64,000 bases of DNA from Bacteroidota bacterium (GCA_013376995.1 JACAAZ010000007.1:135373-199372); one strand, 5' to 3'; counted from the first letter of the stretch, positions 31,698 through 60,509 are shown. The notes: generated by a model from the letters alone, not told the origin. Translations and numbers: made by a program.

Positions 31698-32723
31698 TTA
31701 GTGTAACAACCTGATAACAAACCCTGTAATAACCATGTTGAAAATGGCCAGCGGGATAAGTTTCTTCCATCCCAGTTTCATAAGTTGATCATACCTGAAC
31801 CTTGGTAAGGTCCAGCGGATCCACATGAAAACAAAGCCAAAAAATGTAATTTTCAGGAAGAGAATCAGAACTCCTATAATGGTAAGGATGTTATGAGAAA
31901 CTGGTAACATGGATTCAAACGGGAAATGGTATCCGCCGAAATAGAGGCAGGAAATGATAGCAGCTGATATAAACATATTGATATATTCGGCAAACAGGTA
32001 GAAGCCGAGTTTCATGGAACTGTATTCGGTATGGTATCCTCCTACCAATTCAGTTTCACATTCAGGAAGGTCAAAAGGTGCACGATTCGTTTCAGCGAGG
32101 GCGCAAACAAGGAAGATGACAAATCCAAGCGGCTGATACCAAACGTTCCAGTTGAATCCAGCCTGCTGGTCAACGATCTTCTGAATACTCAGGGTTCCTG
32201 ACATCATAACCACGGCAATGATAGATAATCCCATTGCCAGTTCATAGCTGATCATCTGGGAGGCAGCACGAATGGCTCCCAACAGCGCATATTTATTGTT
32301 CGAGGCCCATCCCCCGATCATAATTCCATAGACACCAACAGAAACGACTGCAAAAACATAGAGTATCCCAATATTGATATCAGCAACCTGGAGACTGAAT
32401 TCATGCCCATTGATAATAAGGCTGTTACCCCAGGGGATTACTGCGGAGGTGAGCAAAGCCACCAGCATGGTGAGGGAAGGCCCGAGGATATAAAGGAATT
32501 TATTAGCTGATGCGGGCATGAATTCCTCTTTGTAGAAAAGCTTGATGCCATCAGCCAGGGGCTGTAACAGTCCGAAGGGACCTGCCCTGTCCGGCCCAAG
32601 CCTGTCCTGGAAAAAGGCAGCAAGCTTCCTCTCAGCCAATGTGGAGTACATGGCAATCAGCAGGCTCACAGTCAGTATGGCGATGGACAGAGTGGCTTTG
32701 TATAGGATGAATTGGTATTCCAT
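31698..32723 (-). CDS. nuoH: NADH-quinone oxidoreductase subunit H
   Basis: 341 aa (…RLGPDRAGPFGLLQPLADGIKL…, …APFDLPECETELVGGYHTEYS…). Confidence 0.93.
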   Translation of the reverse strand: MEYQFILYKATLSIAILTVSLLIAMYSTLAERKLAAFFQDRLGPDRAGPFGLLQPLADGIKLFYKEEFMPASANKFLYILGPSLTMLVALLTSAVIPWGNSLIINGHEFSLQVADINIGILYVFAVVSVGVYGIMIGGWASNNKYALLGAIRAASQMISYELAMGLSIIAVVMMSGTLSIQKIVDQQAGFNWNVWYQPLGFVIFLVCALAETNRAPFDLPECETELVGGYHTEYSSMKLGFYLFAEYINMFISAAIISCLYFGGYHFPFESMLPVSHNILTIIGVLILFLKITFFGFVFMWIRWTLPRFRYDQLMKLGWKKLIPLAIFNMVITGFVIRLLH

Positions 32724-33032
32724 GCTGGTCTTTTAGGGTACTAAAAATCTCTTGATGTTAAGGCTAAGCGCTAAGAGCATAGTGCATAGCGTTATATTGA
32801 TGTTATAATTTATGCAGGGTAGTTTTATTCTTTTGCATCTTGATTCGTTCTTCTGACTTCCGACTTCTTACTTCCTATTTTTATCTTTTGACTTTTCCGT
32901 CAGCTGACGGATTTGACTTTTATCTTTTGACTTTTGTCTTTTGTCTTTTGACTTTTGTCTTTTGACTTTTGTCTTTTATCTTTTGACTTTTATCTTATTC
33001 CTCCCCACTTTGCGCTTAACGCTGCACCCCCC
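32724..33032. repeat. mosaic heptamer-repeat spacer between nuoG and nuoH (region A)
   Basis: 309 nt non-coding. It has about 15 phased WCTTTTR heptamers (about 32880..32997), GACTTCC/TACTTCC words, and GCTAAGCGCTAAGAGCATAGTGCATAGCG (32762..32790). The perfect 16-bp palindrome lies at 32896..32911. Confidence 0.9.
32896..32911. repeat. perfect 16-bp palindrome TCCGTCAGCTGACGGA (copy 2 of 3)
   Basis: Read directly from the sequence. It is embedded in the CTTTTG heptamer tract. Confidence 0.9.
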
Positions 33033-34001
33033 TCACTCCTGTTTCTCTGTCTTTTCCTCAAGTGGCTTGATGATAGACGGTTTTTTTATTTTTTCATAAT
33101 GGTTGGCTGATATGACCGAATTCCGTTCGATGTGGCGGGGGCCTTCAATAACCCAATCGGAAGTCTGTTTCTTTTCAAAACGGCATTCATCGCAAATGAA
33201 TTCCTCAACTTCTCCGAATTGATCCTTGCGGGCAGTTACCCTGTAAATCTCCTTGCCAAACATCCAGGCTGTGACTTTCCCGCTGCATTTCAGGCAATCG
33301 CGGTGGGCGTTCATTGGGTTCAGGAACCATACCCTGCTTTTAAAGCGGAAAGTGCGGTCAGTCAGGGCCCCTACAGGGCATACATCAATCACATTCCCTG
33401 AGAAATCAGAATTAATATTTTGGCTGATGAGGGTGCTGATCTCAGCCGTGTCACCCCTGTACATCACGCCATGCACACGTTTGCCGGCAATCTGGTCCGC
33501 AGTATAAACGCAGCGGTAGCAAAGGATACATCGGTTCATGTGCAGTTTGATCTTCTCACCAATATCAACTACATCAAATTCTCTTTTCTCTTCGATATAG
33601 CGGGTAGCTTCAAGTCCATGTTTGAAACTGAGGTCCTGGAGGTCGCATTCACCAGCCTGGTCGCAAACCGGGCAATCCAACGGGTGATTGATCAGCAGGA
33701 ATTCCACGATGGCTTTCCTGGCTGCAAGAACTTCGGGAGATGTTATATTCTGAACGACCATTCCATCCTGGACAGGTGTGCTGCATGAGGCTACCAATTT
33801 AGGCATAGGCCTTGGATCAGCTGCGGAACCCTGGGCTACTTTAACCAGGCAGGTACGGCATTTTCCGCCGCTTCCCTTCAATTTGGAGTAGTAACACATA
33901 GCAGGAGGCACTACTTCCCCGCCGATTTTTCTGGCAGCGTTGAGGATAGTGGTTCCCGGTTCTACTTCGACCGTTATGTTATCAATGGTTACTTTAAACA
34001 T
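33033..34001 (-). CDS. nuoG: NADH-quinone oxidoreductase subunit G, short form (FeS N-terminal module only)
   Basis: 2Fe-2S motif CYYSKLKGSGGKCRTCLV...C, HPLDCPVCDQAGEC, and CILCYRC...CPVGAL. The ATG at 34001 overlaps the nuoF stop by 8 nt; the ORF track TTG is at 34013. Confidence 0.88.
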   Translation of the reverse strand: MFKVTIDNITVEVEPGTTILNAARKIGGEVVPPAMCYYSKLKGSGGKCRTCLVKVAQGSAADPRPMPKLVASCSTPVQDGMVVQNITSPEVLAARKAIVEFLLINHPLDCPVCDQAGECDLQDLSFKHGLEATRYIEEKREFDVVDIGEKIKLHMNRCILCYRCVYTADQIAGKRVHGVMYRGDTAEISTLISQNINSDFSGNVIDVCPVGALTDRTFRFKSRVWFLNPMNAHRDCLKCSGKVTAWMFGKEIYRVTARKDQFGEVEEFICDECRFEKKQTSDWVIEGPRHIERNSVISANHYEKIKKPSIIKPLEEKTEKQE

Positions 34002-35340
34002 GTACTTGTGCAAGTTTAGAAATGGGCTGGTGTTTTGGATCCCTGACCAATTCCGGGTAATTTACATGAAATTCAAATTCTTCCCTGAAATGCCTTATGG
34101 CGCTGGCAACAGGCCAAGCAGCAGCATCCCCGAGCGGACAGATGGTATTGCCTTCAATCTTGGCCGCTATGCTTACGAGCAGGTCAATATCTTCCTGGCG
34201 CCCATGGCCGTTCTCGATCCGGTGAAGCACCTTCTCCATCCAGCCTGTGCCTTCGCGGCAGGGCGAACACTGGCCGCAGCTTTCATGGTGGTAAAAACGT
34301 GAGAAATTCCAGGTACTGCGGACCATGCAGGCATCCGCATCATACACAATAAATCCCCCGGAACCCATCATGGTCCCGCTGACAAATCCACCTTCAGCCA
34401 GGGATTCATAACTCATAAGCCTTGGTTCACCTGCTGCGGTAGTAGTAATCAGCTTAGCAGGAAGAACAGGAACCGAAGATCCGCCGGGTATAACAGCTTT
34501 TAATTGCTTCCCGCCTTTGATGCCCCCGCAATATTCTTCGGAAAACAGGAATTCACTGACCGGAAGCCCCAGTTCTATTTCATAAACACCCGGTTTGTTA
34601 ATATTGCCGCAGGCAGAGATCAGTTTTGTACCAGTACTACGTCCAATTCCAATCTTAGCGTATTCAGGGCCGCCCATATTGATGATAGGGCCGACGGCTG
34701 CAAGTGTTTCTACATTGTTGACTACCGTAGGGCAGTCGTAAAGCCCCTTAACAGCGGGGAAAGGAGGTTTGATGCGGGGATTTCCCCTTTTACCTTCCAG
34801 GGATTCCAGCAAAGCTGTTTCTTCACCGCAGATATAGGCTCCCGCACCTGAATGAACATATATCTCAAGCGAGTAATTCGTTCCGAGTATATTTTTTCCA
34901 AGGAAACCGGCTTTACGGGCTTCGGCTACCGCCTGTTCCAGGATGCCAATTTGGGTTTTAAACTCACCCCTGACATAAACGAAGGTGGCATTGCAGCCCA
35001 GTGCATAACTTGAAACAATCAAACCTTCAATTAACAGGTGAGGGATATGGTCAATCAGGTAGCGATCCTTGAATGTTCCGGGTTCACTTTCATCTGCATT
35101 ACAAACGAGGTAGCGGGGATTATTGGTTTTCCTGTCTAAGAAGCTCCATTTGAGGCCTGTCGGGAAGCCGGCTCCACCACGGCCACGCAGGCCCGATTTC
35201 TTAACCTCTTCGATGACTTCGTCAGGAGACATGGTTTTCAGGGCTTTCTCCACTGCGGAGTAGCCTTTGTTGGCCCGGTAAACATCGAAGGTTTTGATGC
35301 CGGGAACGTCGATATGTTCTAACAGAATTTTTCGGCCCAT
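33994..35340 (-). CDS. nuoF: NADH-quinone oxidoreductase subunit F (FMN/NADH-binding)
   Basis: GRGGAGFPTGLKW, GAGAYICGEETALLESLEG and ESCGQCSPCREG. Confidence 0.95.
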   Translation of the reverse strand: MGRKILLEHIDVPGIKTFDVYRANKGYSAVEKALKTMSPDEVIEEVKKSGLRGRGGAGFPTGLKWSFLDRKTNNPRYLVCNADESEPGTFKDRYLIDHIPHLLIEGLIVSSYALGCNATFVYVRGEFKTQIGILEQAVAEARKAGFLGKNILGTNYSLEIYVHSGAGAYICGEETALLESLEGKRGNPRIKPPFPAVKGLYDCPTVVNNVETLAAVGPIINMGGPEYAKIGIGRSTGTKLISACGNINKPGVYEIELGLPVSEFLFSEEYCGGIKGGKQLKAVIPGGSSVPVLPAKLITTTAAGEPRLMSYESLAEGGFVSGTMMGSGGFIVYDADACMVRSTWNFSRFYHHESCGQCSPCREGTGWMEKVLHRIENGHGRQEDIDLLVSIAAKIEGNTICPLGDAAAWPVASAIRHFREEFEFHVNYPELVRDPKHQPISKLAQVHV

Positions 35341-35897
35341 TTGCTTTCCTTCGGTTTATCAACATTTGCTTTAGATCTCAATTCCGATAGAATCCGGTCG
35401 ATCTTTTCGTTAGTCAGGTTTTCTTCAAATTCGGTATTTACCTGCATGACCGGGGCATATCCACAAGCACCCAGGCACTCAACTCCCTGGAGGGTAAAAA
35501 GCCCGTCGGGAGTAGTTTCACCGTCAGTGATTCCAAGTTTTTCGCTGAGGTATTCAAAAATATCTTCGCCTCCGCAAATGGCACAGGGAGCAGTACGGCA
35601 AACTTCCAGCAGGAATTTGCCGGTATTCTCAAGTCTGAACTGGGTGTAGAAGGTTGCAACTTCGTAAACCTCCACAGGCTGGATTTTCAGCAGATCAGCA
35701 ACGAAATCCATAACATCCACGCGGAGGTGACCACCGGATTCTTCCTGTGCAATATGAAGTATCGGAAGCAGGGCTGATTTTTGCCTGCCTTCCGGGTAGC
35801 GGCCAATAAGCTTCCTGAACTTCGCAAGGGTCTCCTTACTGAATTCTACAGGCTGATTATCCCGTTCGAATATTTTATGTTGTATGCGTAAGGCCAT
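35319..35897 (-). CDS. nuoE: NADH-quinone oxidoreductase subunit E (2Fe-2S)
   Basis: Thioredoxin-like ferredoxin pattern CRTAPCAICGG...ECLGACGYAP. Confidence 0.92.
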   Translation of the reverse strand: MALRIQHKIFERDNQPVEFSKETLAKFRKLIGRYPEGRQKSALLPILHIAQEESGGHLRVDVMDFVADLLKIQPVEVYEVATFYTQFRLENTGKFLLEVCRTAPCAICGGEDIFEYLSEKLGITDGETTPDGLFTLQGVECLGACGYAPVMQVNTEFEENLTNEKIDRILSELRSKANVDKPKESKWAEKFC

Positions 35898-36234
35898 TAA
35901 TCGGGTAGTTGTGTTTTGTTTAGCACTTAGGGCTTAGCGCGGGGTGTTATGGTTTGGCGTTCGACGTTTGGGGTTCCTGGTTCTTGGTTCCATGTTCAGA
36001 GTTCTGTGTTCCATGTTCCATGTTAAGCTTTCTTTATTGAGTCTTTCAGTTTCTATATCATTCTTACTACTTGCTTCTTGCTTCTTACTTCTTTCTACCT
36101 GCTTCTTACTTCCTACTTCCTACTTCCTACTTCCTACTTCTGTCTTCTTACATCCACTTTTATCTTTTGTCTTTCTCCTTTTGTCTTTTATCTTAAACTA
36201 CCCGCTTCGCTCTCAGCGCTTTGCTCTAAGCTCA
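35898..36234. repeat. mosaic heptamer-repeat spacer between nuoD and nuoE (region B)
   Basis: 337 nt non-coding. It has TACTTCC x4 plus TACTTCT (36107..36141), GTTCCAT(G) repeats (35987..36024) and CTTTT(A/G)T words. GCTTAGCGC and CAGCGCTTTGCTCTAAGC blocks sit at the ends. Confidence 0.9.
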
Positions 36235-37446
36235 TCACGCATCCAACTCCCCGGCGATCACGTTCATGCTGCTCATGGTAAGGATAGCATCCGATAAAAC
36301 ACCTCCCCGGATCATTTCGGGATAGGCCTGGTAGTAGATGAATCCCGGCCTGCGGAAATGCAGCCTATATGGAGTTCTGCCTCCATCGCTAACCAGGTAG
36401 AATCCAAGTTCTCCGTTACCACCTTCTACAGCATGGTAAACTTCTCCGACCGGGGGATTCACTTCTCCCATCACGATCTTGAAATGCCAGATCAGGGATT
36501 CCATTTTACTGTAAACATCCTCTTTAGGAGGGAGGTATATTTCAGGAACATCAGCATGATATGGACCTTCTGGTAAATTGTCCAGCGCATTCCTTACGAT
36601 TTTCAGGCTTTGCCAGAGCTCTTCCTGGCGCACACAGAAGCGGTCGTAAGTATCACCATGTGTTCCTATCGGTATTTCAAAGTCAAAATCTCCGTAGGAT
36701 GAGTAGGGTTGGGCAACTCTTACATCATAATCAACCCCGGCAGCCCTGAGGTTAGGACCTGTGAAACCATAATTCAGTGCCCGCTCTGCCGTTATAGGTC
36801 CAACACCAATGGTCCGGTCCATGAATATTCGGTTTCGCTTAAGCAGCTTCTCAAATTCTCTAAGGACTTTAGGCAAATGATCCAGCAATTCCCGGATCTT
36901 TTTTATGGCTTTTGGAGAAAGGTCACGCTCGAAACCGCCTATTCTACCCATATTAGTAGTAAGGCGGGCGCCGGAAACTTCCTCGTAAATTTCGTAAATC
37001 TTTTCACGTTCCTGGAAAACGTATACAAAACCAGTAAGGGCACCACTATCAACACCAATAACCGAATTGCAAATCAGGTGATCGGTAATTCGCGCCAATT
37101 CCATCAGGATGATGCGCATATAATCGACCCGTTTGGGCATTTCGATTCCAAATAGTTTTTCTACTGTCATCATCCAGCCCAGGTTATTGATGGGGGAGGA
37201 GCAATAGTTCAGCCGATCAGTAAGCGGGGTGATCTGGTAATAGGGGCGGTGTTCTGCCAGTTTTTCGAAAGCACGGTGGATATAGCCTATGGTCTGCTCA
37301 GCATCGATCACGATCTCGCCATCCATTTTAAGGACATTCTGAAAGATACCGTGTGTTGCCGGGTGGGTTGGGCCCAGGTTCAGGGTGCTGTAGACCGGGG
37401 TTTCGACTTCTGCAGGGGGCATAGGCTGATGGACATCGTTTTTCAT
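36235..37446 (-). CDS. nuoD: NADH-quinone oxidoreductase subunit D
   Basis: 403 aa (…LNLGPTHPATHG…, …HRAFEKLAE…). It overlaps nuoC by 4 nt. Confidence 0.95.
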   Translation of the reverse strand: MKNDVHQPMPPAEVETPVYSTLNLGPTHPATHGIFQNVLKMDGEIVIDAEQTIGYIHRAFEKLAEHRPYYQITPLTDRLNYCSSPINNLGWMMTVEKLFGIEMPKRVDYMRIILMELARITDHLICNSVIGVDSGALTGFVYVFQEREKIYEIYEEVSGARLTTNMGRIGGFERDLSPKAIKKIRELLDHLPKVLREFEKLLKRNRIFMDRTIGVGPITAERALNYGFTGPNLRAAGVDYDVRVAQPYSSYGDFDFEIPIGTHGDTYDRFCVRQEELWQSLKIVRNALDNLPEGPYHADVPEIYLPPKEDVYSKMESLIWHFKIVMGEVNPPVGEVYHAVEGGNGELGFYLVSDGGRTPYRLHFRRPGFIYYQAYPEMIRGGVLSDAILTMSSMNVIAGELDA

Positions 37447-37952
37447 ACACTTGCCTCCCTTCCAAAAAAGCGGTTGTCCTTATCTTCACGGGTCGGATCT
37501 TCCAAAGGATATTCTTTGCGAAGCGGGAAATAATCCAGGTACTCGACGTTCAGGATACGGATAAGGTTTGGGTGGCCCATGAAATTGACCCCGTAAAAGT
37601 CATAGGTTTCGCGTTCCATCCAGTTTGCCGCAGAAAATAGGTCAGTAACAGTTGGGATTGACGGGTTCTCCTTAGGAAGGAATGTTTTTATACGAACCCT
37701 TGTATTTTCCCTCATATTGTACATCAGGTAAACTACACCGAACGGGTCTTCCTGATCAGGATAGTGTATACCGCAAAGGTCGGTGAGGAATTCAAATTCC
37801 AATCTTTCCGTTTCTTTCAGGAATTGAATGGTATCATGAAGAACTGCAGGACTAACAGTGACAGTGAGGATTCCATAAAGGACCTCCTGTTGCAGTATTT
37901 CACTGCTGAACTTCCCGCTCAAGGATTCTAGGATATGTTGGTTGTCAATCAT
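37443..37952 (-). CDS. nuoC: NADH-quinone oxidoreductase subunit C
   Basis: 169 aa (…ANWMERETYDFYGVNFMGHPNLIRIL…). Confidence 0.92.
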   Translation of the reverse strand: MIDNQHILESLSGKFSSEILQQEVLYGILTVTVSPAVLHDTIQFLKETERLEFEFLTDLCGIHYPDQEDPFGVVYLMYNMRENTRVRIKTFLPKENPSIPTVTDLFSAANWMERETYDFYGVNFMGHPNLIRILNVEYLDYFPLRKEYPLEDPTREDKDNRFFGREASV

Positions 37953-37964
37953 TCTAAAACAATG

Positions 37965-38516
37965 CTATCGTATTCCGTAGGAAGAAAGAAGTTCCCTGTA
38001 TTCCGGTGAGTAGCGCCTGCGCAGGGGTTCATTGGCTACCAGGTCCTGGATGCGCATGAATCCATCGATGATCTGCTCCGGTCTGGGTGGACAGCCTGGT
38101 ACATAAACATCCACAGGGACAATCCTGTCGATCCCCTGGAGTACACTATAAGTGTCAAATATTCCGCCACTGGCAGCACAGGCTCCAACAGCTATAACCC
38201 ACCGGGGTTCAGCCATTTGTTCGTAGACCTGGTGGACAACGGGGGCCATCTTTTTGGCAATGGTGCCCATGACCATGAGTAGGTCAGCCTGCCTGGGTGA
38301 GAAACTGAGCCGTTCGGATCCAAAGCGCGCCAGGTCATAATGGGCGCCCATGGTTGCCATGAACTCTATGCCACAGCATGAAGTTGCAAAAGGAAGAGGC
38401 CAGATGGAGTTGCTGCGTGCAAGGCCAATTACTTTGTCGAAGCGGGTGGCGAACATACCGGGTGATGAGTAACCTTCCGGTGGTTCGACTTTATTATAGA
38501 GAGGTTTTTCTGACAT
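37965..38516 (-). CDS. nuoB: NADH-quinone oxidoreductase subunit B (N2 cluster)
   Basis: SCCGIEFMA ... GACAASGG ... VPGCPPRPE. Confidence 0.95.
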
Positions 38517-38540: not shown

Positions 38541-38921
38541 TTATTCCCATTCAAAGGCTTTTTTCCGCATAATGTAGTAGAAGCCGGCGATAAATACACC
38601 CAAAAACAACAGCATTCCAAGGAATTCATTCCAGGTGCCATTCCTGAAATCCACAGCAAAAGGGTAGAAGAAGATAACTTCCACATCAAAGAGGACGAAA
38701 AGGATGGCTATCAGAAAATACTTTACTGAAAAAGGAAAACGGGCATTTCCTTTGATCTCGATACCGCATTCAAAGTTTTCTCCCTTATGCAGGGTGCGGA
38801 TTTTCTTGCGTTTTCCGCCTATGAAATGCGAGAGGCCCATTGTAATTACAACGAATCCAAGTGCTACGAGTGTTTGAACCAGGACCGGCACATAATCAAC
38901 CGGTAATTGTTGGGTTTCCAT
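38541..38921 (-). CDS. nuoA: NADH-quinone oxidoreductase subunit A
   Basis: 126 aa with 3 TM helices (…ECGIEIKGNARFPFSVKYFLIAILFVLFDVEVIFFYP…). Confidence 0.92.
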   Translation of the reverse strand: METQQLPVDYVPVLVQTLVALGFVVITMGLSHFIGGKRKKIRTLHKGENFECGIEIKGNARFPFSVKYFLIAILFVLFDVEVIFFYPFAVDFRNGTWNEFLGMLLFLGVFIAGFYYIMRKKAFEWE

Positions 38922-39883: not shown

Positions 39884-39930
39884 GGGTTTTAAACCTGACA
39901 GGTTTCTAAAACCTGTCAGGTTTAAAACCC
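39884..39930. repeat. REP-like 47-nt perfect palindrome (22-nt arms, 3-nt loop)
   Basis: GGGTTTTAAACCTGACAGGTTT-CTA-AAACCTGTCAGGTTTAAAACCC, 33 nt upstream of the transposase start. Confidence 0.85.
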
Positions 39931-45380: not shown

Positions 45381-45618
45381 AGAAATGCAAAGTGCAAAAT
45401 GCAAAGTGCAAAATGCAAAATGCAAATAGATGGATGTCGGGTGCCGACGAACGAGGGACGAGGGAAAAGGGACGGTTTCCAGGTGCCTGGTTCCAAGGGA
45501 CAGGGGACAAGGGACTTGAGATAAGTGTAGTGTTCCATGTTCAGTGTACTAAAAACAAAGAACTAATAGCTCATAACATAACTCATAACTCATAACGAAT
45601 ACACCACAACAATCCACC
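45381..45618. repeat. mosaic heptamer-repeat spacer between galE and rfbB (region C)
   Basis: RTGCAAA x6 (45385..45426), ACGAGGG/AAAAGGG and GACARGG words, the 13-mer GTTCCATGTTCAG (45532..45544) and CTCATAAC repeats (45570..45596). Confidence 0.9.
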
Positions 45619-53106: not shown

Positions 53107-53321
53107 GGGGTGAAGGTGTTATTGTCTGTTGTTAGTTATTGGTAATTGATGATTAGTTATTGGTAATTGGTGATTGGTTATTGGTTATTGGTTATTGGTT
53201 ATTGGTGATTAGTTACTGGTAATTAGTTAGTTCCGGTTAAGGAGGATTGCATTTTCTTGTATTACAAGGCTCTTCGCCCTTTGCCCTACGCGCTGCACCC
53301 TAAGCCCTTTGCGCTAAGCAT
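53107..53321. repeat. mosaic heptamer-repeat spacer between the PTPS/QueD-family gene and folE (region D)
   Basis: 14 perfectly phased heptamers TRGTDAT (53133..53230). A GC-rich block of phased 7-mers (CCCTTTG CCCTACG CGCTGCA CCCTAAG CCCTTTG CGCTAAG CATTCAG CGCTGCG) runs into the stop codon at 53322. Confidence 0.92.
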
Positions 53322-58880: not shown

Positions 58881-59077
58881 AGGAGAGATAGGGGAAAAGG
58901 GGACAAGGAGTGAGTCGCCCAATAGTCAAACAATAGTCATTCATTGGTCACTCAATTGTTAATTGAAAGGAAAGCATTAAACCGGGAGCAAGGTTCTATG
59001 TAATTAATAAAGATATTCAATCCAAAACCAATAACGTATTACCGGTAACCTATAACCTATAACTAATCACCTGCACC
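58881..59077. repeat. mosaic repeat spacer upstream of dxr (region E)
   Basis: GGGGAAAAGGGGACAAGG words, an 11-mer array CAATAGTCAAA / CAATAGTCATT / CATTGGTCACT (58920..58952), and CCAATAAC and CCTATAAC words just before dxr. Confidence 0.85.
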
Positions 59078-60241
59078 CTGAAACGAAGAATAGCCATACT
59101 TGGATCTACAGGCTCCATTGGAACACAGGCGCTGGAAGTCATTCGCGACCATCCCCGTGAACTGGATGTCGAAGTGCTTACTGCACATTCCAATGCCCCC
59201 CTTCTTATCAGGCAGGCCCTGGAATTCAAGCCCAATGTTGTGGTTATTGCTAAGGAGAGCATGTACGAAAAGGTACATGAAGCCCTGGATCCTTTTGACA
59301 TCAAAGTATATGCTGGAGAAGAGTCCATTTCGCAGGTTGTTGCAATGGATACAATCGACATGGTGCTTGTAGCCCTGGTAGGATTTTCGGGACTGAAGCC
59401 GACCATTGAAGCCATCAAGGCACAAAAACCCATTGCTCTTGCAAATAAGGAGACATTGGTGGTAGCAGGTGAACTCGTCACCCGTCTTGCTAAGGAGAAA
59501 GGTGTTAACATTTACCCAGTTGACTCTGAGCATTCGGCGATCTTTCAATGCCTTGCCGGGGAATTCCATAACCCGGTCGAAAAAGTTATCCTCACCGCCT
59601 CCGGCGGGCCATTTAGGGGAATGGACCGCAAAGCATTGGAAAAAGTAAGCAAGGACCAGGCCCTTAATCATCCAAACTGGAAAATGGGCTGTAAGGTCAC
59701 TATTGACTCTGCTTCTATGATGAACAAAGGTCTTGAGGTTATTGAAGCCTGCTGGCTATTTGGGCTCAAACCTGAACAGGTTGATGTGATCATTCATCCG
59801 CAGAGTATTATTCACTCCCTTGTGCAGTTTACTGACGGAGCGATGAAAGCCCAAATGGGGCTGCCTGACATGCGCCTTCCCATTCAATATGCTCTTGGAT
59901 ATCCACAGCGGATGAAATCTTCATTTCCGCGGTTTAACTTCCTGGATTATCCCCAACTGACTTTCCAGGCTCCGGACCATGAAGCTTTCCCCTGCCTGGA
60001 TCTTGCCTACAGCGCAATGAAAAAGGGTGGAAATATGCCTTGTGTGATGAATGCGGCGGATGAAATTGCAGTGCATGCTTTCCTTCGTGAAGAGATCAGT
60101 TTCCTCCAGATCCCTGAACTCATTGAACAATGCATGAACACTTCAGGTTTCATTCAAGCTCCAGGCTTTGACGAGTTTATGCTGACGGACCAGGAAACCA
60201 GGATGCTGGCAAATGAGGTATTGCGTAAAATGAAACGATGA
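59078..60241 (+). CDS. dxr: 1-deoxy-D-xylulose 5-phosphate reductoisomerase
   Basis: (L/M)KRRIAILGSTGSIGTQALEVI NADPH motif, NKGLEVIEA, 3' end at 60241. The 5' end is uncertain. The conserved N-terminus lies upstream of the first GTG (59174) with no ATG/GTG/TTG after the in-frame stop at 59060; CTG at 59078 is proposed. Confidence 0.85.
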   Translation: MKRRIAILGSTGSIGTQALEVIRDHPRELDVEVLTAHSNAPLLIRQALEFKPNVVVIAKESMYEKVHEALDPFDIKVYAGEESISQVVAMDTIDMVLVALVGFSGLKPTIEAIKAQKPIALANKETLVVAGELVTRLAKEKGVNIYPVDSEHSAIFQCLAGEFHNPVEKVILTASGGPFRGMDRKALEKVSKDQALNHPNWKMGCKVTIDSASMMNKGLEVIEACWLFGLKPEQVDVIIHPQSIIHSLVQFTDGAMKAQMGLPDMRLPIQYALGYPQRMKSSFPRFNFLDYPQLTFQAPDHEAFPCLDLAYSAMKKGGNMPCVMNAADEIAVHAFLREEISFLQIPELIEQCMNTSGFIQAPGFDEFMLTDQETRMLANEVLRKMKR

Positions 60242-60509
60242 TCGTCTTACCTTTGCAGGGAGAGGCAGTGGTCACACAATAGTCAAACAATGGTCAAACA
60301 ATGGTCAAACAATGGTCAAACAATGGTCAAACAATGGTCATTTCCGTCGGCTGACGGATCATTCAATTGGCGTAGGGCATAGCGCTTAGAGGGGGTAATA
60401 AGGAGATAAAAGCTTTGCATCTTTGCGCCTTTGCGAGAGAAAGAATAGTCAGACAAGAACGAACAAACAATAACCAATAACTCATAACACATTATCCTTC
60501 AACATATAT
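60242..60509. repeat. mosaic repeat spacer between dxr and rseP (region F)
   Basis: 11-mer array TGGTCAAACAA x about 7 (60269..60345, four perfect copies), the 16-bp inverted repeat (60343..60358) and GCATAGCGCTTAG. It also has CTTTGCATCTTTGCGCCTTTGCG and a 48-nt G-free CCAATAAC/CTCATAAC leader (60462..60509). Confidence 0.92.

Follow-up and report, generated by a model that had tools for sequence, protein, structure and literature searches.

A heptanucleotide-repeat mosaic between nuoD and nuoE in the complex I operon of a Bacteroidota bacterium

The stretch of DNA considered here comprises 64,000 nucleotides from a member of the Bacteroidota (GCA_013376995.1 JACAAZ010000007.1:135373-199372) and is referred to, at its full length, as the window. 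It has a GC content of 42.7% and carries on its minus strand a nuo operon of the 14-gene type (Table 1), whose NuoD is 85-88% identical to proteins of Bacteroidales/Bacteroidota metagenome-assembled genomes (MAGs). The subject of the analysis is the intercistronic gap of 337 nt between nuoD and nuoE, termed spacer B. The gap is genuine, because the start of nuoE is already the most upstream one possible and the homologues align to the ends of both genes: alignments with nuoE homologues begin at residues 1-5, and those with nuoD homologues reach residue 403, the last residue of NuoD.

Heptamers from the nuoD stop to the nuoE start

Spacer B is made up of short arrays of diverged heptanucleotide repeats that follow one another to form a non-coding, intercistronic mosaic. 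At lags 7, 14, 21 and 28 its self-identity reaches 0.591, 0.56, 0.53 and 0.51, respectively, whereas 2000 shuffles of the same sequence have a lag-7 identity of 0.313±0.023 with a maximum of 0.40. A contingency chi-square test of base against position modulo 7 gives p=5e-11; no significance is reached in spacer B for k=5, 6, 8, 9 or 11, and the modulo-7 test is non-significant in five ordinary spacers. Tandem Repeats Finder places five arrays of period 7 or 14 within the spacer, which also shows a 21-nt super-period, equivalent to about two helical turns. When the mRNA-sense strand is written in rows of seven, about 47 heptamer slots follow one another from the nuoD stop codon to the nuoE AUG in an essentially single register, which shifts by one base at two block boundaries and spans the whole gap rather than a bounded insert. 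In the sense direction, the units appear in the order GCNNAGN, AAAAGAY, GAAGTAR/GAAGCAA (including five copies of GGAAGTA), a degenerate stretch, NNNGAAC (e.g. ATGGAAC), and finally CTAAGNN together with A/C-rich heptamers.

An earlier note, made from the sequence alone, had described spacer B as a non-coding heptamer mosaic within the nuo operon, a description that is borne out by the lag-7 identity and by the presence of stops in every sense frame. The words it had listed are likewise in place. The plus strand, 70% of which is pyrimidine, contains four TACTTCC and one TACTTCT in phase, as well as the CTTCTTR, GTTCCAT and CTTTTRT word families. GC blocks lie near both ends of the spacer, GCTTAGCGC (35932-35940) and GCTCTAAGC (36223-36231), and form an inverted pair with 89% complementarity. 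The 13-mer GTTCCATGTTCAG (35987-35999) recurs without mismatch and on the same strand at 45532-45544 in another intergenic region, spacer C. In the mRNA sense, the GGAAGTA repeats place a TAG every 7 nt and in all three frames within 21 nt, as had been pointed out. The latter is a matter of arithmetic, because 7 is coprime to 3. In the arrays compared for this property, the repeat unit contains a stop in 85 of 147 arrays in the sense direction and in 67 of 147 in the antisense direction, with 50 versus 32 discordant arrays (p=0.06). The difference is not significant, and selection for stops in all frames is therefore unconvincing; the TAG codons in all frames are no evidence of design.

The sense frames of spacer B hold 16, 4 and 9 stops, and the plus-strand frames 3, 1 and 5. 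A 117-amino acid open reading frame (ORF) on the plus strand (35944-36297) has no Pfam match and runs along the pyrimidine-rich strand, which is poor in stops; its reading as a coding sequence is rejected on these grounds. Consensus scans of 35898-36234 revealed neither a Bacteroidetes promoter (-33 TTTG/-7 TAnnTTTG) nor a sigma-70 promoter. The pattern TTTG-N15-23-TAnnTTTG matches four times in the whole window, which is chance level, and not once in the spacers. A consensus scan for a sense-strand intrinsic terminator, i.e., a GC hairpin followed by a U-run, was also negative in spacer B. The sole terminator-like site in a nuo spacer, the hairpin TCCGTCAGCTGACGGA with its T-run at 32896-32911 in the nuoG-nuoH gap (spacer A), is terminator-like only on the plus strand, antisense to nuo. 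Rfam yielded no match at the gathering score in the whole window and none at E<=1 in 35800-36330.

Of 100 dinucleotide shuffles of the sense RNA of spacer B, 99 fold better than the RNA itself (z=+2.0). The centroid fold of this RNA retains a single pairing, that of the 12-nt inverted repeat, and the stop-proximal GC palindrome is 71% complementary. Spacer A folds better than its shuffles (z=-3.3), with paired GC blocks and a perfect hairpin inside, and the folding of spacer C and of a fourth spacer, D, is unremarkable against shuffles. A structured RNA is rejected for spacer B, since it folds worse than shuffles and significant folding among spacers A-D is confined to A. The last 78 nt of spacer B on the sense strand have a C/G ratio of 3.0, whereas the 99th percentile for segments of 78 nt across the sequence is 2.55; the ratio reaches 24 in spacer D. 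With its low predicted structure, this part of spacer B resembles, in composition alone, a Rho utilization (rut) site, i.e., about 80 nt of C-rich, G-poor, unstructured and untranslated RNA.

A family of spacers with a composition that follows transcription

Segments of 70 nt with a lag-k identity of at least 0.6 occur in the window for k=7 in 40 cases, all within four intergenic spacers, and for k=11 in one 11-mer array; no other k is represented. The four strong heptamer spacers, A to D, are joined by two weaker ones, E and F, and all six lie between co-directional, functionally linked genes. The earlier note had grouped spacer B with spacers A and C, and the shared words agree with this grouping. 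Exact 10-17-mers are common to different spacers, the longest exact match between A and B being 17 nt. On the sense strand, A and B are colinear in their 5' halves, in that the stop is followed by a GC block, TAAGATAAAAGNCAAAAG and then GAAGTAAGAAG, and the two spacers share their module order; otherwise each spacer has its own unit set. The doublet pattern of the GCNNAGN family, GCNNAGNGCNNAGNG, has 12 matches in the window versus 0.27 expected, all of them in spacers A, B, D and F.

Because the genes flanking spacers B and C have opposite orientation, the common 13-mer had been taken to mean that element orientation is not tied to the direction of transcription. The composition of the spacers contradicts this claim. 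The sense strand is A-rich and T-poor in all six spacers (A 0.35-0.47, T 0.13-0.23), and all six change from an A+G-rich sequence after the upstream stop to an A+C-rich sequence before the downstream start. The first third has a G content of 0.22-0.34 (0.27-0.34 in five spacers and 0.22 in F) and a C content of 0.08-0.20, and the last third has a C content of 0.22-0.34 and a G content of 0.01-0.14. By our own grouping of the matches, about 13 families of words of at least 10 nt that are shared between spacers keep the same sense orientation and about three are discordant; the 13-mer of B and C, one of the latter, is a genuine but isolated exception. Both trends hold in the nuo loci of other Bacteroidota that are described below. 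A exceeds T on the sense strand in 55 of 68 heptamer-rich co-directional spacers versus 155 of 257 others (Mann-Whitney p=5.6e-5). In 33 of 41 heptamer-rich spacers, G-C skew is higher in the 5' half than in the 3' half (Wilcoxon p=3.6e-6), compared with a ratio of 113 to 81 in ordinary spacers. The orientation of the spacers is tied to transcription, and the sense strand is always A-rich and U-poor in the window.

The polarity tracks gene direction and not position: spacer D is opposite to C, E and F in plus-strand composition although all four lie within the same 20 kb, and no GC-skew switch was found across 40-64 kb. This suggests that RNA or transcription, rather than replication, is responsible. 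A replication-strand cause is ruled out within the window by these two observations; the comparison loci are all nuo-centred, so the confound may apply there.

Several further repeats were observed in and around these spacers. Spacers C and D contain GGG-N4 heptamers (45451-45515 and 53270-53312, respectively; ACGAGGG, ACAAGGG, GCAAAGG GCTTAGG) with G-quadruplex potential on the sense strand. The dxr-rseP spacer (F) contains 6.5 copies of the 11-mer TGGTCAAACAA with 95% identity (60269-60340), followed by the hairpin TCCGTCGGCTGACGGA (60344-60359), which is nearly identical to the above-mentioned hairpin of spacer A. The start of dxr lies almost certainly about 30 codons upstream of the start given in the ORF list, 59174 (i.e., in 59077-59173), because the Pfam match covers the profile only from position 30 onwards; further upstream, the frame reads ...RRIAILGSTGSIGTQ. 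The gene apparently starts at a non-ATG codon, and the AACCTAT heptamers of spacer E thus reach right to the start. We also note a 47-nt palindrome with a 20-bp stem, GGGTTTTAAACCTGACAGG...CCTGTCAGGTTTAAAACCC, at 39884-39930 in a 324-nt gap two genes upstream of nuoA, which is a candidate bidirectional terminator or repeat element.

Table 1. Positions of the nuo genes, the heptamer spacers and the parts of spacer B in the window
Feature	Position	Strand	Remarks
nuoA	38541-38921	-	
nuoB	37965-38516	-	
nuoC	37443-37952	-	
nuoD	36235-37446	-	stop codon 36235-36237
Spacer B, nuoD-nuoE	35898-36234	-	intercistronic gap, 337 nt
GC block of B, stop-proximal	36203-36231	-	GCNNAGN family; sense GCTTAGA GCAAAGC GCTGAGA GCGAAGC; weak palindrome
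AAAAGAY array of B	36157-36194	-	about 5.4 units; plus strand CTTTTAT/CTTTTGT; words also in spacer A (exact 12-17-mers)
GAAGTAR/GAAGCAA array of B	36061-36151	-	13 units; plus strand TTCTTAC family; contains TACTTCC x4 and TACTTCT, 36107-36141 (sense GGAAGTA)
NNNNAAC family of B	35952-36028	-	plus strand GTTNNNN x11, perfect register, e.g. GTTCCAT; holds the 13-mer common with spacer C
GC block of B, start-proximal	35924-35943	-	sense CCCCGCG CTAAGCC CTAAGTG; partly complementary to the stop-proximal block
12-nt inverted-repeat arm of B	35899-35910	.	partner 36196-36207; 92% complementary; would join the 5' part of B to the bases immediately ahead of the nuoE AUG
nuoE	35319-35897	-	ATG 35895-35897
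nuoF	33994-35340	-	
nuoG	33033-34013	-	
Spacer A, nuoG-nuoH	32724-33032	-	309 nt; paralogous heptamer mosaic
nuoH	31698-32723	-	
Spacer C	45381-45618	+	238 nt; between two NAD-dependent sugar epimerase/dehydratase-family genes; units CAAAATG, ACGAGGG, ACAAGGG, CATAACT; mod-7 p=4e-17
Spacer D	53107-53321	-	215 nt; between 6-pyruvoyl-tetrahydropterin synthase (PTPS) and GTP cyclohydrolase I genes; GCNNAGN block, then CAATAAC array; mod-7 p=5e-15
Spacer E (weaker), M23 peptidase gene-dxr	58881 to ~59076	+	AACCTAT and CCAATAAC words; same compositional gradient
Spacer F (weaker), dxr-M50/rseP gene	60242-60509	+	11-mer array, hairpin, GCNNAGN block, CAATAAC words

Heptamer arrays in other nuo loci and related repeat systems

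The comparison set consists of 80 nuo loci from Bacteroidota, 935 kb in all. Period 7 accounts for 81 tandem arrays in these loci, versus 37 of period 6, 42 of period 8 and 19 of period 9, with further arrays at 14 and 21. Heptamer arrays are present at the junctions D-E (16/76), C-D (12/78), F-G (10/65), B-C (8/76), A-B (7/73), H-I (6/61) and G-H (3/64). The nuoD-nuoE spacer has a median length of 28 nt and exceeds 200 nt in 7 of 76 loci. The heptamer words at this junction are mostly unrelated between genomes, for example GGATAAA, GATTAGC, GACAATT, GGCAGTA, GGTAAAT and AAATCTG. The units CTCATAA, AAAAGTC, CAAAATG and TAACCAA recur in the arrays of other genomes, but by a rough estimate this sharing of words across species is not clearly above chance for A-rich heptamers. 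In locus L087 a hexamer array (GGTTAA) of about 20 copies fills the nuoD-nuoE junction (2855-2997), which shows that other periods occur beside the dominant period 7.

A near-identical strain did not come to light: look-ups of the exact NuoE, NuoD and NuoH proteins matched only Logan contigs of SRR12042537. These contigs stem from the same organism and end inside the GGAAGTA array of spacer B; in practical terms, short-read assemblies break inside heptamer arrays. The closest genomes are 80-88% identical at the protein level, and the best match of a metagenome scan 80%. The nearest genomes, L002 and L006 (NuoD 87-88% identical), have nuoD-nuoE spacers of 27 and 43 nt without an array, and the nearest metagenomic relative, L082 (NuoE 80% identical), has a mostly non-repetitive 171-nt spacer with short, unrelated heptamer runs and a lag-7 identity of 0.35. 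As the junction words mostly differ between genomes and the nearest genomes lack arrays, the heptamer spacers turn over quickly and recur independently. A counter-example to fast turnover is provided by L056 (7156-7303) and L128 (2848-2952), two loci with about 70% DNA identity, in both of which GGCAGTA arrays begin at the nuoD stop codon. In the L128 array, six GGCAGTA are followed by seven GGCAATA, a clear amplification of a variant unit.

Two other observations concern the same junction. The nuoD-nuoE spacers of L106 (1964-2202) and L110 (2734-2991), which belong to loci of 88% identity in two related metagenomic genomes, share a GC-rich centre of 141 nt that matches at 93.6% and is inverted between them; this centre lies between heptamer arms, CAAAACT and TTTTGAG/TTTTGCA, and may be an invertible segment. 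In L001 (2943-4649), among the closest MAGs with a NuoD of 85% identity, the gene after nuoD is an unrelated ORF whose start resembles a signal peptide, and no nuoE was found in the remaining 1.7 kb, which represents either a real operon break at nuoD/nuoE or a misassembly.

These results also bear on the proposal of the earlier note that the spacers cut the operon into nuoA-D, nuoE-G and nuoH-N blocks. The geometry is as proposed. A functional division is not supported, as spacer B contains no promoter or sense terminator, its counterparts in the nearest relatives are 27-43 nt long and lack an array, and heptamer arrays are found at every nuo junction elsewhere, which rules out conserved block boundaries.

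Bacterial heptanucleotide repeats were already known in 1990, and from 2007 onwards they have been recognised as the long simple repeats with the strongest over-representation. Spacer B belongs to the repeats of the heptanucleotide simple sequence repeat (SSR)/short tandemly repeated repetitive sequence (STRR) type, of which it is a Bacteroidota counterpart: its 7-nt units are arranged head to tail, its location is intergenic and non-coding, several loci share units, and period 7 is in excess. The STRRs of the cyanobacteria Calothrix, Nostoc and Anabaena are likewise tandem 7-nt units in intergenic positions, with shared units at many loci and a function that is unproven in both cases, and they can lie within operons, as between pecE and pecF in Nostoc (PMC4692102). 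They are usually arrays of a few fixed units, in contrast to the mosaic of at least six unit families per spacer described here, which occupies the whole gap in a single register and has a sense composition gradient. According to the summaries of Mrazek 2007 in PMC4679880 and PMC4692102, heptanucleotide repeats are the most abundant class of long SSRs in most genomes, and polymerase slippage was put forward to account for loops of such size and for the preference for 7 nt. The dominance of period 7 among repeats of 5-11 nt, the intergenic position and the proposed slippage are common to those SSRs and to the present repeats, whose excess over periods 6, 8 and 9 reproduces the pattern. Whole-spacer mosaics, an operon-internal position and a transcription-linked polarity do not figure in that survey as it is summarised there.

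The TAACTGA repeats of Beggiatoaceae, Cyanobacteria and some Bacteroidetes offer a further comparison. In Gramella and Aequorivita, heptamers of other kinds occupy the corresponding intergenic regions, whose counterparts in close relatives are shorter and free of such repeats (MacGregor 2015, PMC4679880), which is the same pattern as observed here. Unlike the TAACTGA repeats, which are concentrated just upstream of the start codon, the present arrays span the entire gap, and spacer B lacks the TAACTGA unit. The GGGAATC/GGGGAYT repeats of Xanthomonas and Nostoc (Rehm 2015, PMC4692102) resemble the present ones in their heterogeneous heptamer arrays, inverted array pairs and large variation in length and sequence between close relatives at one site. 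Nevertheless, they consist of G-quadruplex-forming G3/G4 units, and such G runs are absent from spacer B and limited to a few GGG-N4 units in C and D. The repetitive extragenic palindromic (REP) sequences and bacterial interspersed mosaic elements (BIMEs) of enterobacteria are also mosaic and intercistronic, with GC-rich palindromic parts just after stops, and the GC blocks of spacer A form a stable long-range stem. Their conserved palindromic unit of about 35 nt has no equivalent here, where the body is 7-nt periodic and the GC palindrome of B is weak (71%), so spacer B is at best loosely REP/BIME-like.

Origin and role of the spacer

On balance, and with moderate confidence, we regard spacer B as an STRR-like heptamer mosaic that has grown by 7-nt slippage and that forms a co-transcribed, largely unstructured, untranslated linker, filtered by selection, rather than a dedicated operon divider. 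The mosaic would have grown in place through repeated replication-slippage duplications of 7, 14 or 21 nt followed by point mutation, with seed words probably exchanged between spacers, the paralogous 5' half of the nuoG-nuoH spacer being an example. Spacer B is presumably co-transcribed within the nuo mRNA, because no promoter or sense terminator was found and because the six spacers lie inside linked co-directional pairs. Ribosomes would stop at the UGA of nuoD, which is followed by stops in all frames, and nuoE would be initiated afresh without a Shine-Dalgarno sequence; the spacer would in this way uncouple the translation of nuoE from that of nuoD. Such uncoupling should be tolerable, because translation initiation in Bacteroidia does without Shine-Dalgarno pairing and takes place on leaders of weak structure (PMC6847099). 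Selection would act at the RNA level, mainly by filtering those repeats that can be tolerated. A U-poor and purine-rich sense strand after the stop would keep terminators, strong folds and C-rich sites for Rho loading from arising, and an A/C-rich, G-poor sense strand before the start would keep the initiation region open. A filter of this kind would produce the observed transcription-linked polarity, which is most simply understood as a selective filter.

Several points weigh against this reading. The polarity statistics exceed what pure neutrality would give, and the excess of A over T and especially the shift from G-rich to C-rich fit a positive function equally well. Local slippage alone leaves unexplained the identical 13-17-mers at different loci, as well as the fact that nuoD is followed directly by the same GGCAGTA array in two genomes of only 70% DNA identity. 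The good folding of spacer A, whose GC blocks pair, means that the description as an unstructured linker is not universal. Finally, co-transcription and the dynamics of slippage are inferred rather than shown.

The same polarity invites a second explanation, which we consider possible but rather unlikely, namely that the spacer is an adaptive cis-acting RNA element. Its heptamers would be read, one protein per 7 nt, by a protein with an oligonucleotide-binding (OB) fold, of the S1 or cold-shock domain type, or with an RNA recognition motif (RRM), or its A/C-rich 3' part would serve as a ribosome standby or rut site, and the element would set the expression of nuoE-G relative to nuoA-D. The link of polarity to transcription in the window and in other Bacteroidota, the extreme C/G ratios at the 3' ends of spacers B and D, the location of all six spacers within functionally linked co-directional pairs, and the retention of GGCAGTA at one junction despite 70% DNA identity are all in keeping with such an element. 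Suitable precedents exist, as CspB of B. subtilis binds with one protein per heptamer, translational regulation has been proposed for the TAACTGA repeats (PMC4679880), and RRM-family RNA-binding proteins are present in Bacteroides (PMC11697453). Neither the literature search nor PMC11697453 connected RbpB with such repeats. An RNA element is, however, difficult to reconcile with a spacer sequence that is unconserved between relatives and absent from the closest ones, and with arrays that occur at any nuo junction instead of a conserved position. Moreover, the subunits of complex I are needed in a 1:1 ratio, so it is hard to see what would be gained by differential expression, no binding protein or motif is known, and the T-rich words of the CspB type (GTCTTTT) lie on the template strand and not in the nuo mRNA.

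A more far-reaching version, which we hold to be doubtful, is a polar "linker grammar" specific to the Bacteroidota, whose ribosomes make no use of Shine-Dalgarno sequences, that would run from the stop through a GCNNAGN block, A+G-rich heptamers and A+C-rich, G-poor heptamers to the start, and that would be read by Rho, S1 or a protein contacting one unit per 7 nt, thereby setting how far the downstream part of an operon is both transcribed and translated. If true, such a function would explain the persistence of period-7 repeats in operons.

An origin of the spacers as dispersed copies of a mobile or recombining element, similar to a miniature inverted-repeat transposable element (MITE) or to BIME/REP, that inserted between genes with the heptamers as its filling, is quite improbable. 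The colinear 5' halves of A and B with their shared 14-17-mers, the GCNNAGN blocks at the ends of four spacers, the inverted repeats of 12 nt towards the ends of B and of 11 nt in A, the occurrence of the B/C 13-mer in both orientations relative to transcription, and the inverted spacer centre of L106 and L110 could be read in this way. Nevertheless, there are no near-identical copies among the spacers of the window, each of which is built from a unit set of its own. The inverted repeats are short and non-terminal: no terminal inverted repeats with a target-site duplication were found in spacer B, where the 12-nt repeat is non-terminal on the nuoD side and unflanked by a duplication. The 7-nt register fills the gap from stop to start, which is not the signature of a bounded insert, and words that are mostly polar with transcription are unexpected from random insertion without selection. 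No transposase gene was noted beside the six spacers, whose flanks belong to ordinary metabolic and housekeeping Pfam families, although the window was not scanned for transposases.

Equally little probability is assigned to a function at the DNA level, by which the purine/pyrimidine-asymmetric 7/21-bp tract would bind a nucleoid or replication protein or adopt a non-B structure, or by which direct repeats flanking the N-module genes nuoEFG would promote their loss or gain: the pyrimidine-rich plus strand, the 21-nt super-period, the direct orientation of A and B on either side of nuoE-F-G, the unrelated gene after nuoD in L001 and the GGG-N4 units of C and D, with a quadruplex potential as in the Xanthomonas and Nostoc repeats (PMC4692102), are set against a tract that is not a mirror-symmetric homopurine run and has no G3 runs spaced for a quadruplex, a 17-nt longest exact match between A and B that makes a poor substrate for homologous recombination, and a polarity that follows gene direction.

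What is modestly new about spacer B is the single register from stop to start and the polar pattern of composition, from G to C and with A exceeding U; no new kind of element is involved. The locus is a clean operon-internal example in the Bacteroidota and, together with some 40-70 comparable spacers, it offers two measurable regularities that are linked to transcription. The bias of the sense strand towards A over U and the shift from G to C make the question of whether heptamer repeats are junk or functional a testable one.

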